13,483 nucleotides of DNA, from NCBI GenBank assembly GCA_019057635.1, contig DXJL01000076.1, positions 1 through 13,483 of the forward strand, written 5' to 3'. The stretch is from Candidatus Heimdallarchaeota archaeon (GTDB lineage: Archaea > Asgardarchaeota > Heimdallarchaeia > Hodarchaeales > Hodarchaeaceae). A program made the translations under genes and the position numbers. Numbering within the stretch: the first letter of the stretch is position 1; every line of letters begins with the position of its first letter. Of the stretch, positions 1 to 12,942 are shown piece by piece. Below the pieces are notes generated by a model. It was not told the DNA's origin and did not search any database. It was given only the letters and a program-made list of their open reading frames with translations.

Positions 1-285
1 ATTATAGATGCGGAAGAAGCACACAGAATAGGCCTTGTCAATCAAGTATTCTCCTTAGAATCTTATGAGCAAGATGTATCTACATTTCTTGAAAGATTTA
101 ACAAATTAAGTGCTATTGTATTACAATATTCTAAAAAGGCCATTAAATTAGGAATATCTGACTTTGAGACCAAGTTAGACGAAGTAGAAACTCTTTATCT
201 CAAAGAACTTATGGCAACAACTGATGCGAATGAGGGTTTACAAGCTTTTATTGAGAAACGTCCGCCTCAATGGCAGAATCGATAA
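1..285 (+). CDS. dch: Enoyl-CoA hydratase (crotonase) C-terminal fragment, probably cyclohexa-1,5-diene-1-carbonyl-CoA hydratase (5' truncated by window)
   Basis: Frame 1 is open from base 1 to TAA 283-285: IIDAEEAHRIGLVNQVF...LYLKELMATTDANEGLQAFIEKRPPQWQNR. This is a typical crotonase C-terminus. The LYLxELM..DA.EGL segment and the position directly before had, in a cluster with oah, suggest Dch. Not in the ORF track. Confidence 0.75.
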   Translation: MIDAEEAHRIGLVNQVFSLESYEQDVSTFLERFNKLSAIVLQYSKKAIKLGISDFETKLDEVETLYLKELMATTDANEGLQAFIEKRPPQWQNR

Positions 286-352: not shown

Positions 353-1399
353 ATGAGAGCTGCTGTTTTTGAAGAAGTAAAATCACCATTAATAATCAAG
401 GACGATTATCCTAGTCCGAAAATCAATGAATTACAAGGGCAAGTACTCATAAATATTGTAGCATGTGGAGTTTGTCATACTGATTTAGGATTTCTAGATC
501 ATGGTGTACCCACAGGTAAATCTCCACCATTAATTTTAGGGCACGAAATGGCTGGACGAGTACATGATATCAGTGGAGATGTTGCAAATTTCAAGGAAGG
601 AGACCAGGTTCTTATTCCCGCGGTCACCTCTTGCGGTACCTGTTTCCATTGTAGGACTGGACGGGAAAACATATGTTCGAATCAAGTTTTTTTCGGAAGT
701 AATGTTGATGGAGGGTTCGCAGAACAGATTATGGTTCCAGCGAAAGACATTTTCCATCTTCCAGCAGATATACCTTTGGAGGAAGGATGTATTATAGCTG
801 ATGCAATATCTACTCCATATCATGCAGTCAAAAATAGAGGTCAAGTCAGACCAGGTGATTGGGCTGTTGTTTTTGGGTGTGGTGGGATAGGACTCAACGT
901 GGTCCAGAATATTAAAGCTGCAGGTGGATTACCCATCGCAGTTGATATTGTCCCCAAAAAACTAGATATTGCTAAAAAACTTGGAGCTGTTAAAACAATT
1001 TCAGCAAAGGAATTAGATGACCGTGGTATAGTAGGAGCAATCCGAAAAGCTACAGGCGGAGGTGCAGACATTGCTTTTGAAGCGATTGGAAATCCTATGA
1101 CATTTAAGCAAGCATTTAATAGCTTACGAACTGGTGGAAGATTAGTTGCTGTAGGTTATTCTCCAAAACGATGGGATGGCTTTGATATTGGTCGTGTGAT
1201 GTTTCGTGAAATGGAAATAATGGGAAGTTTGGGTTGTCGCACCGTAGATTACCCACGTATTATAGAATTAGTTAAAAATGGTACACTTGTGGTTAAACCA
1301 CTTGTAACAGGAAAATATCCCCTTTCCGAAATAAATGAAGGATTTGATGTCATGCGACGAGGTGAAGGAGTACGAACTGTTATTTTATGTCAAGAATAA
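353..1399 (+). CDS. had: Zn-dependent medium-chain dehydrogenase, probably 6-hydroxycyclohex-1-ene-1-carbonyl-CoA dehydrogenase (Had/BamQ-like)
   Basis: GVCHTD and GHE catalytic Zn motifs, structural Zn CGTCFHCRTGRENIC, Rossmann GCGGIG and an Asp (VD) indicating NAD. The specific call comes from its position after dch and near oah. Confidence 0.8.
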   Translation: MRAAVFEEVKSPLIIKDDYPSPKINELQGQVLINIVACGVCHTDLGFLDHGVPTGKSPPLILGHEMAGRVHDISGDVANFKEGDQVLIPAVTSCGTCFHCRTGRENICSNQVFFGSNVDGGFAEQIMVPAKDIFHLPADIPLEEGCIIADAISTPYHAVKNRGQVRPGDWAVVFGCGGIGLNVVQNIKAAGGLPIAVDIVPKKLDIAKKLGAVKTISAKELDDRGIVGAIRKATGGGADIAFEAIGNPMTFKQAFNSLRTGGRLVAVGYSPKRWDGFDIGRVMFREMEIMGSLGCRTVDYPRIIELVKNGTLVVKPLVTGKYPLSEINEGFDVMRRGEGVRTVILCQE

Positions 1400-1494: not shown

Positions 1495-2637
1495 ATGAAA
1501 ATTGGCATTGTTGGTATTGGTCATAGCAAGTTTGGAAGACGTGATGATGTAACAGTTCAAGAACTTGCATTTGAGCCATTTGTTGAAGCGCTTAATGACT
1601 CAGGACTTCAGCGAGAAGAGATTGACGCTACAATTATTGGGGCCTCTCCCGTTTATATGACCCAAAGAAGTATCGCAGGCCCAGTCACAGAATATTTGGG
1701 ATTAAATCCGCAACCTGTTTGGTTGACTGAAGCTGCTTGTAGTAGTTCCGCATCAGCTCTAAGAACCGCATATGCATTAATTAAATCTAAAATGCATGAT
1801 ACTGTCTTAGTTCTTGGTGTTCAAAAAATGTTAGAAAATCCAACATCAGAAATTCTAAAGATTATGGGACGAACGGGAGATGTTCAATGGGAAGCTCCCT
1901 ATGGAACAACCTTTGCCAATTATTATGCAATGTATGCAAATGCTCATATGACAAAATATGGAACAACCTCGGAACAGCTTGCTAAAGTTGCAGTAAAAAA
2001 TCACTTTTATGGGTCGAAGAATAGTAAAGCTATGTTCCAAAAAGAAATTACGGTTGATAAAGTTCTTGAATCACGGATTATTTCTTCACCTTTACATCTT
2101 TATGATTGCTGTGCGAATGCAGATGGTTCAGCAGCTCTGATAGTTTCGAATGAGGAAATATCCAAAAAAATATCTGATACTCCTATATGGGTTGAAGGTT
2201 TAGGTGCAGCAACAGCTCCGTTTTCCCTTCTCACTCGAGCCGAACTGAGTACCTTATCCAGTGCCGTTGAGGCCTCACGGTCCGCGTATACGCAGGCAAA
2301 GATTGATCCAACAAATATTGATGTAGCAGAAGTTCATGATTGTTTCACTATAGCAGAAATCATGGCCTACGAAGATTTAGGTTTTACAGAGCGAGGTAAA
2401 GGTGGAGAGTTTGTGGAGAATACTTACATTGGTGGTAAAGTGCCAATCAATGTCGATGGAGGCCTTAAAGCAAAAGGACATCCAGTGGGAGCCACAGGGT
2501 GTTCACAAGTCGTTGGAATTGTCCAACAACTTCGTGGAGAAGCAGGACAATGCCAAGTGGATGGAGCAGAGAAGGGTTTAACCCACAATGTTGGTGGCCA
2601 TGGCCAGTATTGTCTCGTCCATGTCTTTTCGAGGTGA
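1495..2637 (+). CDS. SCP2-type/archaeal acetyl-CoA acyltransferase (thiolase)
   Basis: EAAC(SS) nucleophile Cys, EVHDCF, GGLKAKGHPVGATG and C-terminal HNVGG motifs. It is immediately followed by a DUF35 partner gene. Confidence 0.9.
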   Translation: MKIGIVGIGHSKFGRRDDVTVQELAFEPFVEALNDSGLQREEIDATIIGASPVYMTQRSIAGPVTEYLGLNPQPVWLTEAACSSSASALRTAYALIKSKMHDTVLVLGVQKMLENPTSEILKIMGRTGDVQWEAPYGTTFANYYAMYANAHMTKYGTTSEQLAKVAVKNHFYGSKNSKAMFQKEITVDKVLESRIISSPLHLYDCCANADGSAALIVSNEEISKKISDTPIWVEGLGAATAPFSLLTRAELSTLSSAVEASRSAYTQAKIDPTNIDVAEVHDCFTIAEIMAYEDLGFTERGKGGEFVENTYIGGKVPINVDGGLKAKGHPVGATGCSQVVGIVQQLRGEAGQCQVDGAEKGLTHNVGGHGQYCLVHVFSR

Positions 2638-2641
2638 AATG

Positions 2642-3853
2642 ATGAAGCAATTTGGATATCGCGATTATATCTCCCAATCCAAGGTAGGAGCACAGCTTTT
2701 AACGTCTTTAAAAGAGGGAAAATTAGAGGGAACTCAATGTACAAAATGTAATATTTCTTATTATCCCCCTAGAGCCTATTGTCGTGAATGTTTATCCGAT
2801 GGATATATAATCGGTTTTATTTTTTCAGGTAAAGGAACGATACTATCTTTTTCAGAAGTTCACGTTCCTCCCGCAGGTTTTGAACGTTTTACTCCATACA
2901 CAGTTTGTATCGTGGAATTAGATGAAGGAGGCCGACTTGTGGGTTGGATTGATCCTGGATCCCAATCTTTGAAAATTGGAGACAAAGTTAGAGTAAAGCC
3001 TGAAGTGATTGAGGGAGATCGTGTAGTTTACAAAATTACAAGAGGATCGTCTCCAGATGTCGATATAAAGGCTGAAAAAATAGCTCAAAATCTTGTAACA
3101 GGGAGTAACAAACTTCAGGGTAAGGTTGCAATAATAACTGGAGCAGGTAAGGGGATCGGGCGTGAAATCGCCTTAAAATATGCTCGAGAAGGAGCAATAG
3201 TTGTTGTAGCAGCTAGAACGCTCAGTGATATCGAAACAGTCGCAAAGGAAATCAAACAATCTGGAGGAGAAGCAACTCCTATCAAATGCGATGTTGGAAA
3301 TGTAAAAAGTGTTCAACAATTAATTGAGAAGACCTTAGAGAGATATGAAACATTTGACATCCTTGTGAACAACGCAGGAATTTCTAAAAGTGCCCTGATT
3401 AGTAAAATGACTGATGATCTATGGAATTCAGTTATTAATGTGAATTTGAAGGGTACATTCAATTGTATTCGTGCAGTTATTCCTCATTTCTCAACGAAAC
3501 GACCTCTTGGAGGGAAAATTATTAACTTTACGTCAACTGCAGCAAAATACGGTAACGTGGGTCAAAGTGCTTATAGTGCATCAAAATGGGGTGTTATTGC
3601 GCTTTCTAAATCTGCTGCACGCGAACTAGCCACTTACAAAGTGAATGTAAATTGTATCATGCCTGGTTATATAGAAACGGCGATGACAGCAGACACTCCG
3701 TCTGTTTATAAGGAACAGACTATAGCTCAAATTCCTCAAATGCGTATTGGTTACCCCGAAGACGTAGCGAAGGTTGCTGTATTTCTAGCCTCTTCTGATT
3801 CGGATTATATGACGGGTTCAATCCTTCAGGTCGACGGTGGATTAAGGATGTAA
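2642..3853 (+). CDS. Fusion of DUF35 (Zn-ribbon + OB-fold, thiolase partner) and FabG/PhaB-like 3-oxoacyl-CoA reductase (SDR)
   Basis: The N-terminus has CTKC...YYPPRAYCREC and an OB-fold (GKGTILSFSEVH..PYTVCIVELDEG..IGDKV). From ~3110 an SDR follows (TGAGKGIG, NNAG, YSASK, PGYIET, VDGG), with no stop between domains. Start moved from 2588 to ATG 2642 (2639 also possible) because SD GAGGTG at 2631-2636 overlaps the thiolase stop. Confidence 0.88.
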   Translation: MKQFGYRDYISQSKVGAQLLTSLKEGKLEGTQCTKCNISYYPPRAYCRECLSDGYIIGFIFSGKGTILSFSEVHVPPAGFERFTPYTVCIVELDEGGRLVGWIDPGSQSLKIGDKVRVKPEVIEGDRVVYKITRGSSPDVDIKAEKIAQNLVTGSNKLQGKVAIITGAGKGIGREIALKYAREGAIVVVAARTLSDIETVAKEIKQSGGEATPIKCDVGNVKSVQQLIEKTLERYETFDILVNNAGISKSALISKMTDDLWNSVINVNLKGTFNCIRAVIPHFSTKRPLGGKIINFTSTAAKYGNVGQSAYSASKWGVIALSKSAARELATYKVNVNCIMPGYIETAMTADTPSVYKEQTIAQIPQMRIGYPEDVAKVAVFLASSDSDYMTGSILQVDGGLRM

Positions 3854-3896: not shown

Positions 3897-5096
3897 CTAT
3901 TGATCTGGAGTATATGGAGGAAGTTCATATCTTAACTTAGCAGATTTTCGGTATCCTAGAATGTATGACCCTTGGATTAATTTTTGAATTTCATTAGTTC
4001 CTTCAAGAATCGTATTAGCGCGTGCATTTCTCCAGTATCTTTCAACTGGAAAGTCTCCACTATAACCCATTGCACCATGGATTTGGATTGCACGATTCGC
4101 AGCATCAGACGCATGATTTGTAGCTTGCCATTTTGCCATAGCTGTTTCTCTAGTATTTCTAATTCCTTGGTTCTTTAACCACGCGGCTTTATAGACTAAT
4201 AACTGAGATTGATCATAGCCAGCCTGCATATAGGCGATATGTTCCTGTATTAATTGTAATTTTCCAATCTCTTGACCAAATGCTTTGCGTTCACGAGAAT
4301 ATTTCACAGCTGCTTCAATACTGGCTCTTATAACACCGCAAGCACCAGCTGCAACTGTAAATCGACCACTATCTAAGGCTGTCATGGCTATTTTGAATCC
4401 TTCTTGCTCCTTCCCAAGGAGATTTTCAGTAGGGATTCTAACATCCTGAAGGATAATTTCACCAGTATCACCTGTTCTAATCCCTAATTTATCATGAAAC
4501 GAACTCGTAGAAAGACCTGGCAATTCTTTTTCTACAATGAAAGCAGAAATACCTTTATATCCCTTTTCCTTCCCTAATCGAGCAAAAATTAAGAAATGAT
4601 CTGCTACATCAACTAAACTAATCCATTGTTTTGCTCCTTTCAGAACAAACTCATCTCCTTCTCTTACTGCTTTTGTTTGTAGGTTTGCAACGTCTGATCC
4701 ACACCCAGGTTCCGTTAATCCATAGGCTCCGATTTTAGTACCTTTTCCTTGGGGTAATAAATATTTCTCTTTTTGTTCTTCTGTTCCCCATTGGTACATT
4801 GTTAAACACGACAAAGCTGTATGGACTGACATTATTACCCTTAACGAGGTATCTACTCGTTCTAATTCTTCACATGCAAGAGCTAAGGCTATATAATCAA
4901 GGCCTGCGCCTCCCCACTTCTCTGGAATACATACTCCAAGTATCCCCAATTTTCCCATAATTGGAAGTACTTTTTTATATACAGATTTTTGTTGTTTATC
5001 ATAATCACTAATAATTGGTGAGACTTCACGCTCTGCAAAGTCTCGTACACTATCACGTAGCATAATATGTTCTTCTGAAAGTGAAAAATCGATCAT
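3897..5096 (-). CDS. Acyl-CoA dehydrogenase, glutaryl-CoA dehydrogenase-like (possibly non-decarboxylating type)
   Basis: ACAD motifs GLTEPGCGSD, KQWIS, R..FG..I, QIHGAMGY and ILEGTNEIQ (catalytic Glu). The SLRV Arg lies where glutaryl-CoA dehydrogenases bind the substrate carboxylate. Start set at ATG 5096 (MIDF) after SD GGTGA; the ORF track start is 5111. The family is secure, the substrate less so. Confidence 0.85.
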   Translation of the reverse strand: MIDFSLSEEHIMLRDSVRDFAEREVSPIISDYDKQQKSVYKKVLPIMGKLGILGVCIPEKWGGAGLDYIALALACEELERVDTSLRVIMSVHTALSCLTMYQWGTEEQKEKYLLPQGKGTKIGAYGLTEPGCGSDVANLQTKAVREGDEFVLKGAKQWISLVDVADHFLIFARLGKEKGYKGISAFIVEKELPGLSTSSFHDKLGIRTGDTGEIILQDVRIPTENLLGKEQEGFKIAMTALDSGRFTVAAGACGVIRASIEAAVKYSRERKAFGQEIGKLQLIQEHIAYMQAGYDQSQLLVYKAAWLKNQGIRNTRETAMAKWQATNHASDAANRAIQIHGAMGYSGDFPVERYWRNARANTILEGTNEIQKLIQGSYILGYRKSAKLRYELPPYTPDQ

Positions 5097-5259
5097 ATAG
5101 TCACCATCCATGTTTTTTATTTGATTATTTGAGCTGTTATAGGGAATTTTCGTTTCTATTTAGAGTGGTTGAGTTGGATTGTTATAGTAATATAATTTTT
5201 ATGATGAACTAAAGAGCGTGTTTACTATCACGATCAGATTTAATAGAAGGATATATGCT

Positions 5260-6369
5260 TTGAAAGATCATAATCTTTGGAAAGAGGAATATTTTGGAAC
5301 GGATCCTCCGAATATAACGTATGAGCTAAAGCCACTGGTCAATCCAAACGGTGACAAGGTGGATGACCTGTTTTCAGCATGGATTATACTCAATAATCCC
5401 AAACAACTAAATTCTTATACAACAAGAATGGTGAAAGGAGTAATAGCAGGTTTTTCTCGCGCATCAATGGATCGTAATGTTGTTACAGTTGTTTTTACAG
5501 GTGCAGGTGACCGTGCATTTTGTACAGGAGGTAATACAAAAGAATACGCAGAATACTATTCTGGGAAACCCAACGAATACGGACTCTATATGGATTTGTT
5601 TAATGCGATGGTAGATGCTATCCTGAACTGTAAAAAACCTGTTTTATGTCGGACCAATGGAATGCGAGTTGCAGGAGGACAGGAAATAGGTATGGCCGCT
5701 GATATTACTATTTCAGCTGATACAGCTATATATGGGCAAGCTGGTCCTCGTCATGGATCTGCTCCGGACGGTGGCTCAACTGATTTTCTTCCATGGATGC
5801 TTTCTATTGAAGATGCGATGTGGAACTGCATTTCCTGTGAGTTATGGAGTGCCTATAAAGTGAAACAATTAGGAATGATAACAGAAGTCGTTCCTGTGCT
5901 ACAACGAGATGGACAATTCATACGAAATCCCACCGTTATAACTGACAAATATATTCAAGATGGAGAAATCGTTTATGGGGAATTTCTCTCGGGAAAGGAA
6001 TATAAAGATGCAAGAGAGGTTTTGAAAAGCTGTGAAACTGACTTTTCGCTTCTTGATAAAGCAATTGATAACTTAATTTGGAAGTTCGCAAATCTATTCC
6101 CTGGATGTCTAATGAAATCCATCGATGGAATACGTATGAAGAAAAAATTCTTTTGGGATCAAACTAAACTTGCCAATCGTCATTGGTTATCAGCTAATAT
6201 GGCTACTGAAGCGTTATTAGGTTTTCGAACATTTAATGAAAGAAAGTTAACCGGTAAAGATACTATTGACTTTATTAAATATCGCCAGTTAATTGCTAAC
6301 GCACACCCATTTGATCAAAAGCTCATTGATACAGTATTGCCAAAACCATTACAAAATGAGGATTCTTAA
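5260..6369 (+). CDS. oah: 6-oxocyclohex-1-ene-1-carbonyl-CoA hydrolase (ring-opening, Oah/BamA)
   Basis: Diagnostic segments NPKQLNSYTT, AFCTGGNTKEYAEYY, NGMRVAGGQEIGMAAD and GQAGPRHGSAPDGGSTDFLP match my recollection of Oah/BamA. Likely start is TTG 5260 (LKDHNL) after AGAAGGA; the ORF is open from GTG 5218. Confidence 0.93.
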   Translation: MKDHNLWKEEYFGTDPPNITYELKPLVNPNGDKVDDLFSAWIILNNPKQLNSYTTRMVKGVIAGFSRASMDRNVVTVVFTGAGDRAFCTGGNTKEYAEYYSGKPNEYGLYMDLFNAMVDAILNCKKPVLCRTNGMRVAGGQEIGMAADITISADTAIYGQAGPRHGSAPDGGSTDFLPWMLSIEDAMWNCISCELWSAYKVKQLGMITEVVPVLQRDGQFIRNPTVITDKYIQDGEIVYGEFLSGKEYKDAREVLKSCETDFSLLDKAIDNLIWKFANLFPGCLMKSIDGIRMKKKFFWDQTKLANRHWLSANMATEALLGFRTFNERKLTGKDTIDFIKYRQLIANAHPFDQKLIDTVLPKPLQNEDS

Positions 6370-7577
6370 TGCAATTCTCAAAAACTTTCATTCCCTATGG
6401 CTGCTATTGGAGCTCTCCCTTTGTCCGTTGGCAAGGGAACTTTGCTAACCAGAACTCGATACAACTCGCTGCGGAAGTAACTACTCTAGCTTTAAATAAA
6501 TGCAATGTTCAACCAGATATCTTCAATTCAATATATTTGGGGATTACTATTCCTCAGAAACATAGTTTTTATGGCCAAAACTGGTTATCTGGTCTTCTAG
6601 GAGCTCCCAATATCACGGGACCTATGATTGCGCAAGCATGTGCCACTTCTACACGAGTGATTGCCAACGCAGCCTCTGAAATCGAAACCCAAGGCCATCC
6701 CAATCATACTGTACTGACCATTACTTGTGATCGAACAAGCAATGGTCCTCATATCCTCTATCCTGCTCCTTTAGCACCTGGTGGAAAGCCTGATACTGAA
6801 AACTGGGTCTGGGATAATTTTGGTTATGATCCTTATGCAAAAAATCCAATGATACAAACGGCAGAAAATGTATCGAAAGATGCAGGAATAACACGAGAAG
6901 CCCAAGAGGAAGCTACATTACTCCGATACAAACAATATGACCAAGCATTAAAGAATGATGCAGAATTTCTCAGAAAATTTATGATCTCACCCATTGAGGT
7001 GAAGTCGGGAAGAAAAATTATTGCTACTGTTGAAAAGGATGAAGGAATTTACCCTACATCGGTAGAAGGATTAGCTAAACTAAAACCTGTTTTGAAAGAT
7101 GGTTCCGTTACTTTTGGAACACAAACTCATCCCGCAGATGGAAATTGTGGACTGGTTCTTACGACTCAAGAAAAAGCAAATGAGATTTCTCTAAATCCAG
7201 ATTATGAAATTCAGATCCTCTCTTTTGGTCAGGCTCGCAGTAAGAAAGGATATATGCCCATGGCACCAGTGCCTGCATCCCAAAATGCACTTGAATCTGC
7301 AAAACTCTCAGTTAGGGATATTGCTGCAACCAAGTTACATAATCCTTTTTCAGTAAATGATGTCTATTTCAGTGAGGAAATGGGAATCTCACTTGCCTCA
7401 ATAAATAACTATGGTTCATCACTTGTATGGGGGCATCCTCAAGCCCCAACTGGAATGCGTTTACTCATTGAACTAATCGAGGAACTGGTGATAAAGAAAG
7501 GGGGTCACGGTCTTTTTACAGGCTGTTCTGCAGGTGATTCTGCAGCAGCAATAGTCATCAAAGTTAATTCGGTTTAA
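6369..7577 (+). CDS. Thiolase, probably 3-oxopimeloyl-CoA thiolase (BamN-like) of the benzoyl-CoA pathway
   Basis: QACATS nucleophile, HNPF in place of NEAF, WGHPQAPTG and GCSAGD. It is translationally coupled to oah through a TAATG overlap at 6367-6371. Confidence 0.82.
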   Translation: MQFSKTFIPYGCYWSSPFVRWQGNFANQNSIQLAAEVTTLALNKCNVQPDIFNSIYLGITIPQKHSFYGQNWLSGLLGAPNITGPMIAQACATSTRVIANAASEIETQGHPNHTVLTITCDRTSNGPHILYPAPLAPGGKPDTENWVWDNFGYDPYAKNPMIQTAENVSKDAGITREAQEEATLLRYKQYDQALKNDAEFLRKFMISPIEVKSGRKIIATVEKDEGIYPTSVEGLAKLKPVLKDGSVTFGTQTHPADGNCGLVLTTQEKANEISLNPDYEIQILSFGQARSKKGYMPMAPVPASQNALESAKLSVRDIAATKLHNPFSVNDVYFSEEMGISLASINNYGSSLVWGHPQAPTGMRLLIELIEELVIKKGGHGLFTGCSAGDSAAAIVIKVNSV

Positions 7578-7633: not shown

Positions 7634-8524
7634 TCAGAAAGACCGAGGCGTCGGAGGATTCGTAGAATAATCGTAAAATCCAATTCCTGACTTTCTTCCA
7701 AGATGATTTGCACGTACCATTTTTCGAAGTAGGGTGGGAACTCGGTACTTAGAATCTTGAAACTCGGTAACGAAATAATCAGCTATAAAAAGTGTTGTAT
7801 CTAGACCTACAAAATCCAACAAAGTAAATGGGCCCATAGGATGATTTAAACCTAAAGTTATTGCTTTATCCATATCCTCAACCGTGGTTACTCCTTCTTG
7901 TAATGCAAATATTGCCTCAATGAAGAATGGTAACAGGAGACGATTTACTGCGAACCCAGGTGCTTCATTAACGAGTACAGTTTCCTTTCCTAATTTCTGG
8001 GAAAGCTCATCAATGATCTGATATGTCTCATCCGAAGTTTCATATCCTTTAATTATTTCAACCAACCGCATTACTGGTACAGGATTGAAAAAATGCATAC
8101 CAATGAACTTATCTGGACGTTTTGTGGCTGCAGCCATGTCTGTAATAGATATAGATGATGTATTAGAGGCAAAAACCACATTTGAATCACAGATTTCTTC
8201 CAATTCTGCATAAACTTTTCGTTTTAAGCTCCTATTTTCAATTATCGCCTCAATAACCACATCAGCTCCTTCAGTTGCTTCTTTCAAATCGGTAGTTCCT
8301 TTTATTCTTGCCAGAATCTCGTTCATTTGATCTTGAGTCATTTTTCCTTTTTTAACCCCACGTGACAAGTTTTTATTAATCATAGACAGACCTTTCTCTA
8401 TAAAATTATCTTCAATATCCCTCATGGCAACTTGATACCCAGCTTGAGCACAGACTTGAGCTATACCATTACCCATTAATCCTGCTCCTATAACACATAT
8501 TTTTTTCACATTCTCAATCTTCAT
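7634..8524 (-). CDS. hbd: NAD-dependent 3-hydroxyacyl-CoA (3-hydroxybutyryl-CoA-type) dehydrogenase
   Basis: GAGLMGNGIA, EAIIEN, SNTSS, GMHFFNPVPVMRLVE, PGFAVNR, HPMGP, DFVGLD and GRKSG motifs. Start moved to ATG 8524 (MKIENV) after a GGTG SD; the 20 extra upstream codons in the ORF track look non-coding. Confidence 0.9.
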   Translation of the reverse strand: MKIENVKKICVIGAGLMGNGIAQVCAQAGYQVAMRDIEDNFIEKGLSMINKNLSRGVKKGKMTQDQMNEILARIKGTTDLKEATEGADVVIEAIIENRSLKRKVYAELEEICDSNVVFASNTSSISITDMAAATKRPDKFIGMHFFNPVPVMRLVEIIKGYETSDETYQIIDELSQKLGKETVLVNEAPGFAVNRLLLPFFIEAIFALQEGVTTVEDMDKAITLGLNHPMGPFTLLDFVGLDTTLFIADYFVTEFQDSKYRVPTLLRKMVRANHLGRKSGIGFYDYSTNPPTPRSF

Positions 8525-8618
8525 TTGATGAACACCGTTTAATATAATGATGGTAGAAAGTAATAATTCATTATAGTAGAGCATTTTTAGAATTTTTGTT
8601 TATTTTAAGCTCGAAAGG

Positions 8619-8714: not shown

Positions 8715-10301
8715 TTAAGGTTTTTGAGAAATTAAATTATTGTATCGCTCACGTAGGATTCTGTGAACGATTTTACCAGAGCCTGTTCTTGGTACATCCT
8801 CGTAATCAATAAAAAAGACCTTTTTTGGAACTTTAAACCTTGCTAAATTCTTTTTACAATGATTCATTATCTCATCCGCTAAATCTTCAGTAGCTTCAAA
8901 ATCTGGTGCCAGAACACAAATAACGGTAACTGACTCTCCCCATTTATAATCCTGTAATCCGATCACTGCACATTCAAGTACAGAAGGCATTTCATTAATA
9001 GTTTTTTGTACTGCAGATGGAAAAACATGTTCTCCTCCAGTAATTATCATATTCGCCTTTCTATCAACGAGATATAAATATCCGTCCTCATCTCTTTTAG
9101 CCATATCACCTGCACTGAAAAAACCATCTTCCATACTTTCTACTGATTTTTCTGGCAGCTTATGGTATTTTGTGTGTTGCATTGGACCACGAGAGAATAA
9201 CTCTCCTATTTTCCCTTCAACTACTGGCTTTCGTTTATTATCTAATATTTTAATAATATCAGTCCCAACGCATTCAAGTCCAATTGATCCAGCTTTTTTG
9301 AATTGATCTTCTGGTCTTAGAATTGTAACTAGGCCTGCTTCGGTTGAACCATATGCTTCAAAAAGCCTTACACCCTTGAAAAGCTCCATAACCTCGTATT
9401 TCATCTTTTTAGTTGCGGGAGCAGAGGATGTTAAAAGAGATCGAATAGAGCTAAGATCATACTTTTGCATGATTTCATTTGGGAGGCTAAGAATTAGATT
9501 ATAATGTGTGGGTATCATACTGGTGAATGTGATTTTTTCCTCCTCAAAAATCCGTAAGATATCTTCTGGGTTAAATTGGTATTCAATGTGAACATAAACA
9601 CTTGCCCCAATATATGTAAAAACAAAACCATAAAATGTAGAGTTAACATGGGATAATGGCATTAACACTAAACCGTAATCATCAGGCGTAAAGGAGAATT
9701 CCGCAGCATTGATTAGAAAAAAAGATATGTAGGAGCGATGGGAGCGAACAACACCTTTAGGTTTGCCAGTTGTGCCAGAGGTATATAGAAGAATCCACGT
9801 ATCCTCGAGATTTACCTGTATTGAAGGATATTGTACTTCACCATCTCTTACAATATCCTTGTAATAACTCCAGTTCTCCGCAACTGGCATATCCCCAATC
9901 AAAACATGTTGAAGTTTATCTAGTCCAAATTCAATGATTAAATCCCAACTTTCAATTGTAATGTCATAATATCTATCTTGAACCATGACCATTTCTACTT
10001 CAGCATTTCGAACTATCCAATAAAGATCAGCTGGTAGAAGTCGGAAATTCAGGGGAACAATGATAAGACCTGCTTTTGCAGCTGCGCCGTAAATTTCCAT
10101 AAATTCAACACAGTTATTTAGTAAAACTGCTATTTTATCTCCTTTCTTCAAACCTCTTTTGAGTAAACCGTTTGCTAACATATTTGTTCTTTTATCATAG
10201 TCTCTGAAGGTAAGTGAGCGGTTTTTATCCTTAACTGCTAATTTTTTGGGATATTTAAGAGCATTAACTTTAATTATTTCCCCCAGATGTAACCAATTCA
10301 T
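8715..10301 (-). CDS. AMP-forming acyl-CoA synthetase/ligase (ANL superfamily), substrate unknown
   Basis: LYTSGTTGKPKG P-loop, EAYGSTE, SAGD, VDRK..MIITGGE and PRTGSGKI (A10 Lys) motifs. Confidence 0.92.
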   Translation of the reverse strand: MNWLHLGEIIKVNALKYPKKLAVKDKNRSLTFRDYDKRTNMLANGLLKRGLKKGDKIAVLLNNCVEFMEIYGAAAKAGLIIVPLNFRLLPADLYWIVRNAEVEMVMVQDRYYDITIESWDLIIEFGLDKLQHVLIGDMPVAENWSYYKDIVRDGEVQYPSIQVNLEDTWILLYTSGTTGKPKGVVRSHRSYISFFLINAAEFSFTPDDYGLVLMPLSHVNSTFYGFVFTYIGASVYVHIEYQFNPEDILRIFEEEKITFTSMIPTHYNLILSLPNEIMQKYDLSSIRSLLTSSAPATKKMKYEVMELFKGVRLFEAYGSTEAGLVTILRPEDQFKKAGSIGLECVGTDIIKILDNKRKPVVEGKIGELFSRGPMQHTKYHKLPEKSVESMEDGFFSAGDMAKRDEDGYLYLVDRKANMIITGGEHVFPSAVQKTINEMPSVLECAVIGLQDYKWGESVTVICVLAPDFEATEDLADEIMNHCKKNLARFKVPKKVFFIDYEDVPRTGSGKIVHRILRERYNNLISQKP

Positions 10302-10950: not shown

Positions 10951-10991
10951 AATCTGTCAAAAACAGGTGATTGACATAGGTAGTGACCCAA

Positions 10992-11258
10992 ATGGCAGCA
11001 ATTGAATCTAAAACCAATGTAAGCGATTTAAACTTAGGGGAAATAGACGAAAGAGTAACAAAATTGCCCAAGTCGGCACGGGAAATATTTCAACTTCTAC
11101 AGACGAATGGCGCTCTTAAACCCCGTGAAATTGGGTTGTACACCTCATTATCTCATAGAACCATTCGCTATGGATTGAAAATACTTGTTGATGCAGGGCA
11201 AATCAAGAGAGTACCCGACTTACACGACTTACGCACTCACTTTTACGCAATTAATTAA
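10992..11258 (+). CDS. Small winged-helix DNA-binding protein (MarR/ArsR-like archaeal regulator)
   Basis: LPKSAREIFQLL..NGALKPREI...TSLSHRTIRYGLKILVDAGQIKRVPDLHDLRTHFY gives an HTH plus wing pattern. Start is ATG 10992 or GTG 10983. Confidence 0.8.
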   Translation: MAAIESKTNVSDLNLGEIDERVTKLPKSAREIFQLLQTNGALKPREIGLYTSLSHRTIRYGLKILVDAGQIKRVPDLHDLRTHFYAIN

Positions 11259-11473: not shown

Positions 11474-12082
11474 ATGAATTCACAAGACTCTTCTAAGAAA
11501 ATTTTGTCCAAGAAACCCTCAGCTGATGTGAATATTTCTCTTAACGATGATTTTCGAGTATTTTTTCAAGAGAATTTTAATGATGTTCGAAGGGAAATGA
11601 AGGTTATTGCTCAGAATGTTCGAGATTCCTTTATTGATATAGAAAATGAAATTCGAGAGATTAAGGTTCTGACTCAAACCAATTTTAAGCGATTAGAATC
11701 CTTAACAGAAGGTTTCATTGTAGAAGAGAGGGAACCAGAACTAATTTCTACAGGTTTAGACATTTTAACTAACATCCCCAGTCATTTACGAAGAACCTTC
11801 AAAGTTATGCTCACAAAAGAGTCTGGTGCTACGGCATTAGAAGTCTCTCTCGTAACTGGAAAGAGTCGTCCACTTGAAAGCGATTATCTTAATCAATTAG
11901 AGCATATGAGTCTCTTGAGGAAAAGACCTGATCCTGAGAACCGAAAACGAGTCATGTTTTTTATCAAATCTAGCGAACCGTGGAAAGACATCACCACTTA
12001 CTCCAATAACGACTCCAACTCACCAGAAGATTTCATTGAGCGACGTCGTCAGGCTGTTCGTGATGCTTCTGAGTTGAAATAA
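11474..12082 (+). CDS. Hypothetical DNA-binding protein with an N-terminal helical/coiled-coil region and a C-terminal winged helix
   Basis: Heptad-like helix FNDVRREMKVIAQNVRDSFIDIENEIREIK, then IPSHLRRTF..ATALEVSLVTGKSRPLESDYLNQLEHMSLLRKR..RKRVMFFI, which fits a wHTH. Confidence 0.7.
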   Translation: MNSQDSSKKILSKKPSADVNISLNDDFRVFFQENFNDVRREMKVIAQNVRDSFIDIENEIREIKVLTQTNFKRLESLTEGFIVEEREPELISTGLDILTNIPSHLRRTFKVMLTKESGATALEVSLVTGKSRPLESDYLNQLEHMSLLRKRPDPENRKRVMFFIKSSEPWKDITTYSNNDSNSPEDFIERRRQAVRDASELK

Positions 12083-12144: not shown

Positions 12145-12942
12145 ATGAAGATTGTTGCATTTCATTCGTATAAAGGTGGAACGGGAAAAACCCATCTTAG
12201 CGCGAACCTTGCCACGGCATTAGCAAGGCGTGGTTACAAAACGGCCATTCTAGATCTTGATTTTCGCGGACCAAACCTGCAAACATTATGTGGAGTTGAC
12301 GCGAAGACGTCTATCAATGATCTCCTGTTTGATCCTGATTTGAACAGTGAAGATATTTTGGTTTCATTTGAAGAAGAGTATAAAATCCCATTATTTGCTG
12401 CTTTTGCTTCTACAGACTTTCGTAAAATGGGGGAAATTGTGCGCGCAGACAAAAAACAGCGTCAACGCTCCTTGAAACGCATTCTAAAGCTTCGTGATGA
12501 ATTAAGTGACGCGAATTTCGATTTCACTATAATTGATACATCACCTGGGGTTCAAATGGAGAGTATCGATGGATTAGTTATTAGTGATGCCACCTGTCTC
12601 GTATTGAAAGCTGATGACTTTGATATAACTGGTACAAAAAGTATGGTTACCCAGCTTTATTCTTTGCTTGATAGTATTAATTACGTTATTTTAAATCGTG
12701 TTGTAGCTGAATCATGCCCTCCCGAAGAAGGTGTCTGGAGTAGTGCAGATCTGGAACAGGTAAAGAAATTCGAAAATACGATTAAAAATGAAATGCGTAT
12801 GGAAGTTCTTACCTCTATTCCTTGTTTTTGTGAGGTGGCCCGTGAAGGTTCTAGAAATATCTTTAGCCTGAAACATCCTGATCATCCTTTCTCTAAACAT
12901 ATCGAAAATCTGGCCACGGCACTATTAGAAGGTTTTAAGTAG
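12145..12942 (+). CDS. MinD/ParA-family (SIMIBI) ATPase
   Basis: Deviant Walker A YKGGTGKT, switch I LDLDFRGPNL, Walker B IIDTSPG and ILNRV. Confidence 0.9.
   Translation: MKIVAFHSYKGGTGKTHLSANLATALARRGYKTAILDLDFRGPNLQTLCGVDAKTSINDLLFDPDLNSEDILVSFEEEYKIPLFAAFASTDFRKMGEIVRADKKQRQRSLKRILKLRDELSDANFDFTIIDTSPGVQMESIDGLVISDATCLVLKADDFDITGTKSMVTQLYSLLDSINYVILNRVVAESCPPEEGVWSSADLEQVKKFENTIKNEMRMEVLTSIPCFCEVAREGSRNIFSLKHPDHPFSKHIENLATALLEGFK

Follow-up and report, generated by a model that had tools for sequence, protein, structure and literature searches.

What does a DUF35 domain do when it is fused to a ketoacyl-CoA reductase-like enzyme directly behind a thiolase gene, and which pathway does such a pair serve? 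The question is raised by the 13,483-nt stretch of Candidatus Heimdallarchaeota DNA analyzed here in full (the window, which opens at a contig end and whose positions serve as coordinates throughout), where an archaeal SCP2-type thiolase of the catalytic type, hereafter KT1 (380 aa; 1495-2637, forward strand), precedes a 404-aa fusion of DUF35 with a FabG-like classical short-chain dehydrogenase/reductase (SDR; fusion at 2639-3853, forward strand). Tethering of the SDR to the thiolase by DUF35 is well supported and not new in kind. The explanation that we favor, at slightly better than even odds, is that the module constitutes a DUF35-tethered 3-hydroxyacyl-CoA dehydrogenase/thiolase pair of the lower pathway that follows ring cleavage in benzoyl-CoA degradation.

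Anatomy and distribution of the DUF35-SDR fusion

The fusion was delimited from the open reading frame (ORF) list, Pfam and direct reading of the sequence. Its mechanical open frame, 2588-3853 on the forward strand, opens while the thiolase gene is still running. Translation probably begins at the ATG at 2639 (or 2642), 4-7 nt past a GAGG ribosome-binding motif read from the sequence at 2631-2634, which lies within the 3' end of the thiolase gene and beside its TGA stop (2635-2637). In all 15 genomes found to carry the fusion (see below) the gap between the two genes is about 1-11 nt by tblastn coordinates, and KT1 and the fusion are translationally coupled. A first-pass annotation of the window had described a single ORF comprising DUF35 (~2642-3045), a short linker and a complete SDR, with a Shine-Dalgarno sequence overlapping the stop of an SCP2-type thiolase; the position of the GAGG motif agrees with the latter claim, and the domain coordinates are borne out by Pfam and AlphaFold2.

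KT1 matches Thiolase_C_1 (143 bits) and Thiolase_N (65.6 bits) in Pfam, and in NCBIfam NF004720 (474 bits, over the cut-off of 420). Its best match in PDB is 7yvy (E 3.3e-71), followed by 6esq_A (E 1.4e-65), with the EAAC, VHD.F and GH.xGATG motifs aligned. The catalytic residues Cys82 (1738-1740), His281 (2335-2337) and His329 (2479-2481) are invariant in an alignment of 15 orthologues (80-97% identical, mean column identity 91%). Because these three residues are retained, and align with those of 7yvy and 6esq, KT1 is taken to be a thiolase and not an Ltp2-type aldolase.

The DUF35 module of the fusion (residues 1-135; 2639-3043), defined by Pfam, the PDB chain 6esq_E and AlphaFold2, comprises a conserved N-terminal segment, a Zn ribbon and an OB fold, scoring 38.4 bits for zf-ChsH2 (PF12172; gathering threshold 23.2) and 58.3 bits for OB_ChsH2_C (PF01796; 27.1). 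Across an alignment of 47 fusions the N-terminal segment is strongly conserved. The ribbon cysteines at residues 34, 37, 48 and 51 (CxxC...CxxC; 2738-2791) are invariant at the first three positions and substituted in few sequences at the fourth, and would form a four-Cys rubredoxin-like ribbon, predicted to bind metal, ahead of the OB barrel. The AlphaFold2 model computed from this 47-row alignment (mean predicted local distance difference test score, pLDDT, of 79.3; predicted template modelling score of 0.61) shows folded domains at about residues 16-135, with beta strands within 29-135, and at 160-400. Between them, residues 137-154 (3047-3100) have pLDDT below 50, contain zero conserved columns and vary in length among the fusions, a linker of about 20 residues that is predicted to be flexible or disordered.

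The SDR part (residues 160-404; 3116-3853), identified by Pfam and NCBIfam, matches adh_short (210.7 bits), adh_short_C2 (209.6 bits) and the NF009466 subfamily (234 bits, over 222), and falls slightly under the FabG equivalog cut-offs (NF004198, 279.5 against 296; TIGR01830, 267.1 against 297.75). All the customary motifs of the family, TGxxxGxG (here TGAGKGIG, 3137-3160), NNAG and the catalytic Asn-Ser-Tyr-Lys set (Asn269, Ser299, Tyr312 and Lys316), are present and invariant in the 47 fusions, as is Arg193 (3215-3217), and position 171 is always Lys or Arg.

The fusion is intact well beyond this assembly. In a sample of 301 Asgard genomes, grouped according to GTDB, 15 carry a full-length match, from residue 1 or 2 through 404, within a single frame of 405-431 aa that no stop interrupts, at 67-95% identity and with the KT1 gene immediately upstream in every case; they comprise genome G000, 13 others of the genus-level group to which it belongs (21 members sampled), and one genome from another family. 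The DUF35 part alone recovers the same 15 genomes at E <= 1.5e-52, with frames of at least 405 aa, and the next best match drops to E 1.3e-21 in a 160-aa frame; some DUF35 match occurs in 273 of the 301 genomes. In a collection of 5.8 billion proteins, PF01796 and SDR families occur together in 67 of the best 120 clusters, and every named cluster among these best 120 (PF01796 plus SDR) carries some Asgard group label. A word-based search with the DUF35 part returned 58 matches in the 222-707 aa band, all 58 also bearing SDR families and all belonging to this fusion family; for shorter proteins it returned four truncated fusions and three stand-alone proteins at 40-45% identity. Among the best 150 matches of 1.84 billion representatives in a 50%-identity library, P0048 is the only full-length fusion, P0076 and P0193 are fragment-like, and DUF35 was absent by Pfam from the nine longer matches checked. 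The ESM Atlas, queried with the whole protein and with the DUF35 part, yielded plain SDR or plain DUF35 clusters alone and no fusion. The domain junction itself (3040-3110), where the first-pass annotation had wanted an assembly artefact excluded, is covered by DNA contigs from four public runs of four studies (X1-X4, X1 possibly being the source sample) with substitutions only, zero indels and zero joints: 2400-3400 in a single record of X1, 3024-3271 in X2, 3049-3249 in X3, and 3020-3183 and 3025-3400 in X4. Against this bridging, the uninterrupted frames in 15 independent genomes and the SDR families on all 58 matches in the 222-707 aa band, the idea that assembly or gene calling falsely joined two genes, for which no supporting evidence turned up, retains a negligible probability.

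Because it is intact in 15 of 301 genomes, collapses to few representatives in library searches and has its junction bridged, the fusion family is real, conserved and taxonomically narrow. The protein searches made leave room for independent, divergent DUF35-SDR fusions elsewhere, as a 2010 paper implies in its accessible text (PMC2954200). Source labels name the fusion carriers as Heimdall-, Hod-, Thor-, Odin-, Hermod-, Kari- and Promethearchaeota, whereas the GTDB-based sample places 14 of the 15 in one genus-level group; source organism labels are a poor guide to the range of the fusion.

Predicted docking of DUF35 on the thiolase

The best solved relative of the DUF35 part is 6esq_E (E 6.5e-18), which is the DUF35 subunit in the archaeal complex of thiolase with HMG-CoA synthase. 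A complex of KT1 with fusion residues 1-140 was modeled in three runs. Their interface scores (ipSAE) were 0.89, 0.88 and 0.89, whereas the highest-scoring of three controls reached 0.00; partner pLDDT was 88 or more, and the runs had 98% or more of their contacts in common; the mark used for such models is reached by 58 of 80 solved complexes and by 2 of 110 mismatched pairs. The modeled interface comprises DUF35 residues 2, 5-11, 14, 69-79 and 98-103, which are conserved in the fusion family. Because a like complex (6esq) has already been solved, this result denotes likeness to a binding pair and not binding itself. Genomic context points the same way, with a thiolase-fold gene adjoining stand-alone DUF35 at all 12 loci examined. 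In genome G265, from the same order and another family, the fusion has a split counterpart: genes for a thiolase (56% identical), a 139-aa DUF35 protein and a 255-aa SDR (41% identical) are consecutive, the DUF35 stop overlapping the SDR start by 4 nt. One further genome has the unfused order SDR-KT-DUF35, KT denoting the thiolase.

Several proposals of the first-pass annotation hold up on this evidence. Its DUF35 domain is of the thiolase-partner kind, given its closest solved relative, the thiolase gene upstream in each of the 15 genomes and the complex model; the modeling of thiolase plus fusion that it had put forward as a check gave the separation from controls reported above, for a pair whose like is already solved; and its reading of the fusion as a Rosetta-stone sign of a DUF35-tethered reductase finds support in the split counterpart and in the unfused complex of Sulfolobus. 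For the latter, the accessible text of a preprint reports that the thiolase/DUF35 pair of S. acidocaldarius binds the SDR reductase Saci_1104 and that DUF35 raises condensation efficiency 60-fold (bioRxiv 10.1101/2024.07.05.601840).

What the sequence data show is the fusion, with its degree of conservation, its neighboring genes and its catalytic residues; docking and channeling by the DUF35 part we infer, along the following lines. KT1 and the fusion protein would form a two-gene module in which the N-terminal DUF35 docks on KT1 and thereby holds the FabG-like SDR beside it on the flexible linker. The pair would interconvert 3-hydroxyacyl-CoA, 3-oxoacyl-CoA, and acyl-CoA plus acetyl-CoA, so that the unstable and thermodynamically awkward 3-oxoacyl-CoA would be handed on locally, in what may be a covalent version of the DUF35-mediated thiolase/ketoacyl-CoA-reductase assembly. 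A more modest account has DUF35 merely stabilizing or activating the thiolase, as stand-alone DUF35 proteins do, with the SDR fused through a lost stop codon and acting as an independent enzyme of the same pathway without channeling. The 4-nt overlap of the DUF35 and SDR genes in the unfused relative means that a trivial mutation could fuse them, and the disordered, unconserved linker and the narrow range of the fusion are in keeping with this account. Retention of the intact fusion in 15 genomes at 67-95% identity speaks against it, as does the Sulfolobus reductase, which binds the thiolase/DUF35 pair though unfused, and we regard it as improbable.

The only other DUF35 gene in the same genome, on contig C71 (L099 6540-8080), encodes a stand-alone protein of 118 aa and shares 4 nt with the stop end of the gene for a second archaeal thiolase; a 252-aa ORF upstream of this pair gave no family match.

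The module within a benzoyl-CoA gene cluster

Downstream of the module, the window encodes a 383-aa Oah/BamA ring hydrolase of the crotonase family (5218-6369, forward strand; TIGR03200, 569.6 bits, over the equivalog-level cut-off of 464.45). Upstream, it opens within a Dch-like crotonase-type enoyl-CoA hydratase (ECH; ECH_1 match), of which only the 3' end is present (1-285, forward strand). Contig C214 of the same genome (L098 1-14943) ends with this same gene, inside which the assembly breaks, and carries it in full; C214:14506-14787 and window positions 1-282 share 98.9% protein identity. C214 further encodes an HdrD/CCG-like protein, an AOR with a ferredoxin-like 4Fe-4S partner, a GNAT protein, BzdN, BzdO, an activase-type ATPase, BzdQ and a GltD-like iron-sulfur (FeS) flavoprotein of 841 aa. 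Its Bzd subunits exceed their NCBIfam cut-offs (BzdN, 499.2 against 453.8; BzdO, 684 against 448.6; BzdQ, 413.9 against 380.2), and the fourth subunit matches solely as a (second) activase-type ATPase. Because the abutting contig carries BzdN, BzdO and BzdQ and the window carries Oah, the module sits in a bzd-type benzoyl-CoA cluster. This kind of cluster has already been proposed for Hermodarchaeota, in a paper whose main text contains neither "thiolase" nor "FabG" (PMC8163825).

The remaining genes extend this gene set. The full-length crotonase finds its best NCBIfam match in the dienoyl-CoA hydratase family TIGR03189 (188.2 bits, cut-off 292.5), ahead of a generic hydratase at 171.7. Between it and KT1 lies a Zn-dependent, NAD-type medium-chain dehydrogenase/reductase (MDR; 353-1399, forward strand; ADH_N, ADH_zinc_N), which is found directly upstream of KT1 in 13 of the 15 fusion genomes. 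Its best NCBIfam match is to Had, 6-hydroxycyclohex-1-ene-1-carbonyl-CoA dehydrogenase (TIGR03201, 221.8 bits, cut-off 338.65), with the archaeal acryloyl-CoA reductase family lower at 165.7 bits; in PDB it matches the alcohol dehydrogenase (ADH) 1rjw (185.1 bits) and Had 7qul (180.5 bits). CGVCH, GHE and the four structural-Zn cysteines are aligned and the second strand ends in AVDI; because it has this full Zn-ADH ligand set and an NAD-type AVDI, the MDR fits Had rather than an NADPH enoyl reductase. Behind the fusion are a glutaryl-/butyryl-CoA dehydrogenase-like acyl-CoA dehydrogenase (ACAD; 3897-5111, reverse strand; Pfam), which scores 373.5 bits for AcrC and 358.5 bits for GlutCoADH_Des, both under cut-off, and, past Oah and directly behind it, a divergent second thiolase, KT2 (6369-7577, forward strand; Pfam; TIGR01930, 184.5 bits, under 240.55). 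KT2 consistently follows Oah, the pair recurring at loci L005, L122, L123, L124, L126 and L127, and KT2 has no close paralogue in its genome, the next tblastn match being 31.6% identical. An Hbd-like, NAD-type 3-hydroxyacyl/3-hydroxybutyryl-CoA dehydrogenase (HCDH; 7634-8584, reverse strand; 3HCDH_N, 3HCDH; NF004474, 414.2 bits, over 408) and an acyl-CoA ligase (8715-10301, reverse strand; AMP-binding; NF004837, 410.8 bits, under 476) follow. Two forward ORFs of 91 and 202 aa, with no Pfam or NCBIfam match (10983-11258 and 11474-12082), separate the ligase gene from that of a ParA/MinD-type ATPase at 12145-12942.

In relatives these genes form two conserved blocks, block A being ECH-MDR-KT1-fusion and block B (ACAD)-Oah-KT2-HCDH-ligase, which are adjacent in the window and in some of the relatives. 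Oah is matched in every one of the 15 fusion genomes, in 14 of them over the cut-off and in the last by a gene truncated at a contig end; of the 286 fusion-free genomes, 2 have a match. BzdO ranges more widely, occurring in 46 of the 301 Asgard genomes, among them 12 of the 15 fusion carriers. Canonical Oah is confined to 17 of the 301, and at E <= 1e-60 it is missing from the BzdO-bearing members of two large families; the clusters of G096 and G043 have a 315-aa crotonase, 28-36% identical to Oah, in its stead. The ring may be opened there by a divergent hydrolase, or the reductase in these genomes may have a different substrate.

Unfused thiolase/DUF35 pairs keep similar company. Homologous Bzd-linked clusters in another class (genomes G096 and G043; loci L130 and L131) hold two such pairs together with HCDH, crotonases, AOR, ligase and an MDR 51-53% identical to that of the window; the unfused triad of G265 abuts a Bcr-like gene set. 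Thiolase/DUF35 pairs therefore belong to aryl-CoA-reductase-linked clusters in three Asgard lineages. Such pairs are abundant in Asgard genomes and had previously been taken as hints of fatty-acid synthesis, an inference that is tempered because at least three lineages place them in catabolic clusters of this kind.

Some further observations concern these clusters. An AOR with a small 4Fe-4S protein is conserved in the Bzd/Bcr-linked clusters of three Asgard lineages (L098 9806-13744, L111 7185-9549, L130 11116-13436). The 630-aa AOR-family protein upstream of the module was considered as a candidate for BamB, the class II reductase, and rejected on its scores against 1aor (360.3 bits) and BamB 4z3w (234.2 bits). 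Recoding in BzdO of one Asgard family was likewise rejected, since the apparent internal stops, at codon 428, are where these genes end. A leucine-rich-repeat protein of 495 aa is encoded 1.8 kb downstream of the fusion in a related Asgard genome (L003 12986-14473); it matches only the leucine-rich-repeat parts of families named after bacterial effectors, far under their cut-offs.

As a tethered pair of the lower benzoyl-CoA pathway, the module would most likely serve one of the two rounds after ring cleavage, either 3-hydroxypimelyl-CoA to glutaryl-CoA plus acetyl-CoA or the later C4 round, and the Oah-linked KT2 with the NAD-type HCDH would take the remaining one. The established pathway calls for two rounds of dehydrogenase plus thiolase once the ring is cleaved, one at C7 and one at C4 (compare AabC/AabD of Aromatoleum; PMC9795900); the gene set here would supply two dehydrogenase-plus-thiolase pairs, and sequence does not assign a pair to a round. 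A comparable trio of G. metallireducens, ech-thiolase-SDR (Gmet_2057-2059), is given as induced 15-32-fold on benzoate (PMC1924859). The CoA substrates, the reaction direction and the use of NADP(H) we infer from the gene set and the motifs. Since no acyl carrier protein (ACP) domain (PP-binding, PF00550) was found in this 91.6% complete genome, the family being detected in 11 of 14 controls, the substrates should be CoA thioesters. The accessible text on Hermodarchaeota states that bzd-type systems regenerate reduced ferredoxin from NADPH (PMC8163825), which, with the GltD-like FeS flavoprotein lying beside the Bzd genes, may provide a catabolic rationale for an NADP-type SDR.

Several points weigh against this assignment. 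The Had and Dch families, though best-scoring for the MDR and the crotonase, are matched under their curated cut-offs. Co-occurrence of fusion and Oah comes down to essentially two lineages, one represented by a lone genome that is 9% contaminated, and closely related genomes do not count as independent cases. Blocks A and B lie 129 kb apart in one complete genome, and Oah has its own conserved adjacent thiolase, KT2, with the NAD-type HCDH alongside; because Oah has KT2 and HCDH and the blocks are separable, synteny does not fix the step served by KT1 and the SDR. In PDB alignments the SDR part resembles the FabGs 3ftp, 2uvd and 4jro in its basic Gly-motif residue and in the invariant Arg193 just after strand 2, and it lacks the Asp that 4nbu and 2et6 have at the end of that strand. 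Together with what we take to be the NADPH or NADH use of these five enzymes, the motifs point to NADP(H), more typical of a reductive biosynthetic enzyme, and they are the chief argument for a reductive role. Moreover, the nearest characterized relatives of the SDR, FabG and the MFE-2 dehydrogenase, are presumably (R)-specific, and the neighboring hydratases are crotonases.

Two rivals run the chemistry in the synthetic direction. In the main one, KT1 and the DUF35-SDR fusion would condense and ketoreduce at the heart of a fatty-acid (or dicarboxylate) synthase that is CoA-based and independent of ACP, with the ECH as dehydratase and the MDR as enoyl-CoA reductase. The Sulfolobus complex has this very composition, with thiolase, DUF35 and an NADPH-dependent, (R)-specific FabG-type reductase, and an MDR enoyl reductase in its gene cluster; the NADP-type motif of the SDR, the closeness of KT1 and DUF35 to the biosynthetic archaeal complex 6esq, the four activities gathered in block A up to 129 kb from Oah, the ACP search that came back negative and two MaoC proteins encoded elsewhere in the genome, outside block A, would all suit it. 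What makes it unlikely in our judgment is that the MDR belongs with the Zn-ADHs and has an NAD-type motif, scoring higher for Had than for acryloyl-CoA reductase, that the dehydratase candidate is a crotonase and not a MaoC protein, that the fusion is found only in genomes with Oah, and that homologous clusters elsewhere in Asgard are catabolic sets, with ligase, ACAD and NAD-type HCDH grouped round Bzd/Bcr-like reductases. The other rival runs the same benzoyl-CoA gene set reductively, as Syntrophus reportedly does: KT1 would condense glutaryl-CoA with acetyl-CoA, the NADPH reductase would pull the product to 3-hydroxypimelyl-CoA and on to ring closure, and alicyclic or aromatic acids would serve as electron sink. 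It would account for an NADP-type SDR and a biosynthetic-type thiolase/DUF35 pair tightly linked to Dch-like, Had-like and Oah genes, and for a DUF35 of the kind that raises condensation 60-fold in Sulfolobus. The ligase and ACAD in the cluster suit degradation, and an ATP-dependent bzd-type reductase is not known to run backwards; this rival is the less probable of the two. Of the roles proposed in the first-pass annotation, channeling in an aromatic pathway thus fits the gene context better, and ACP-independent acyl-CoA elongation stays as a rival.

In the boldest synthetic reading, a thiolase and a DUF35-fused NADPH ketoacyl-CoA reductase would form a covalent condensing and reducing core in a genus-level group of Asgard archaea that source names assign to Heimdall-/Hodarchaeales. 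Such a core would extend carbon chains as CoA thioesters with no need of ACP, in the manner either of a proto fatty-acid synthase or of the ring-cleavage branch in reverse, and the fusion would represent a step towards multidomain synthases in a lineage near the eukaryotic ancestor; we consider this a minority prospect. If true, an anabolic role would bear on the "lipid divide".

Relation to known systems

The kind of system seen here is known, from DUF35-scaffolded thiolase complexes, MaoC-DUF35 fusions and DUF35-Rossmann fusions. The first-pass annotation had ranked the locus as a candidate for an undescribed system, a claim that is not supported: the S. acidocaldarius assembly has been demonstrated biochemically, and fusions of DUF35 homologues with Rossmann domains that bind NAD(P) appear in a list from 2010, as far as the accessible texts go (PMC2954200 for the latter). 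A literature search did not find the fusion family, its Asgard range or its benzoyl-CoA context described, though such genes may be listed in the supplements to the Sulfolobus preprint and the Hermodarchaeota paper. The main text of the preprint does not mention such a fusion. What the fusion adds is a natural Rosetta stone for a claim that rests on one preprint, namely that it is through DUF35 that an archaeal thiolase recruits a ketoacyl-CoA reductase/dehydrogenase, with the split counterpart present in a sister lineage. A system this simple, of two proteins, also lends itself to structural study of the hand-over of 3-oxoacyl-CoA.

For bacterial FabG the likeness lies in the SDR part, which is 45-51% identical to FabG-like proteins and shares the catalytic tetrad and the basic Gly-motif residue; it differs in falling under both equivalog cut-offs and in coming from a genome where ACP was not found. 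Among 77 bacterial loci of the best SDR relatives, none has a KT1 or DUF35 relative nearby and an ACAD gene is often about 2 kb off, which leaves these loci uninformative on function or origin. Aromatoleum sp. CIB offers, in AabC and AabD, proposed enzymes for the same 3-hydroxypimelyl-CoA dehydrogenase and 3-oxopimelyl-CoA thiolase steps (PMC9795900), and the accessible texts on these and on Gmet_2057-2059 of G. metallireducens name no protein family for AabC, AabD or the Geobacter thiolase and mention no DUF35 or fusion (PMC9795900, PMC1924859). Benzoylsuccinyl-CoA thiolase BbsAB and BbsCD (PDB 7pxp, 7pcs) likewise combine DUF35, an SCP2-type thiolase and an SDR in consecutive anaerobic aromatic steps; the matches (BbsB, E 6.1e-49; BbsA, E 0.0023; BbsD, E 6.9e-48) are more distant than those to archaeal relatives, and the Bbs proteins are separate and act on another substrate.

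Two systems share the scaffolding principle. In the archaeal thiolase/HMG-CoA synthase/DUF35 complex (6esq, 6et9), DUF35 scaffolds the next enzyme onto the thiolase, and that partner is HMG-CoA synthase, held non-covalently; no gene for this enzyme is present in the window, and a genome-wide search for HMG_CoA_synt_C (PF08540) gave no match, a weak negative given that the family is also silent in two of four archaeal controls. The MaoC-DUF35 fusions ChsH2 and Shy dock on the thiolase-like aldolases Ltp2 and Sal, according to the accessible texts (PDB 6ok1; PMC11321319, PMC12329534). As in the present fusion, DUF35 is there joined to the enzyme of a neighboring step and binds a thiolase-fold partner, in a catabolic pathway. 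Their fused enzyme is a hydratase with DUF35 at its C-terminal side, whereas here an SDR lies C-terminal of DUF35, and Ltp2 and Sal have repurposed thiolase residues, with no nucleophilic Cys, whereas KT1 keeps Cys82, His281 and His329.

A close parallel is the stable S. acidocaldarius assembly of thiolase, DUF35, ketoacyl-CoA reductase and MaoC dehydratase (Saci_1121/1120/1104/1085; bioRxiv 10.1101/2024.07.05.601840). By the accessible account, both systems have a thiolase with a downstream DUF35 gene, an attached FabG-type SDR, CoA instead of ACP thioesters as substrates (predicted ones in the present case), an MDR in the cluster and beta-oxidation genes. The Sulfolobus assembly differs in having a MaoC partner and an NADPH-dependent MDR enoyl-CoA reductase, whereas here block A lacks MaoC and the MDR is an NAD-type Zn-ADH. 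It consists of four separate proteins for which synthesis has been shown; here DUF35 and SDR form one polypeptide, set in a benzoyl-CoA context.

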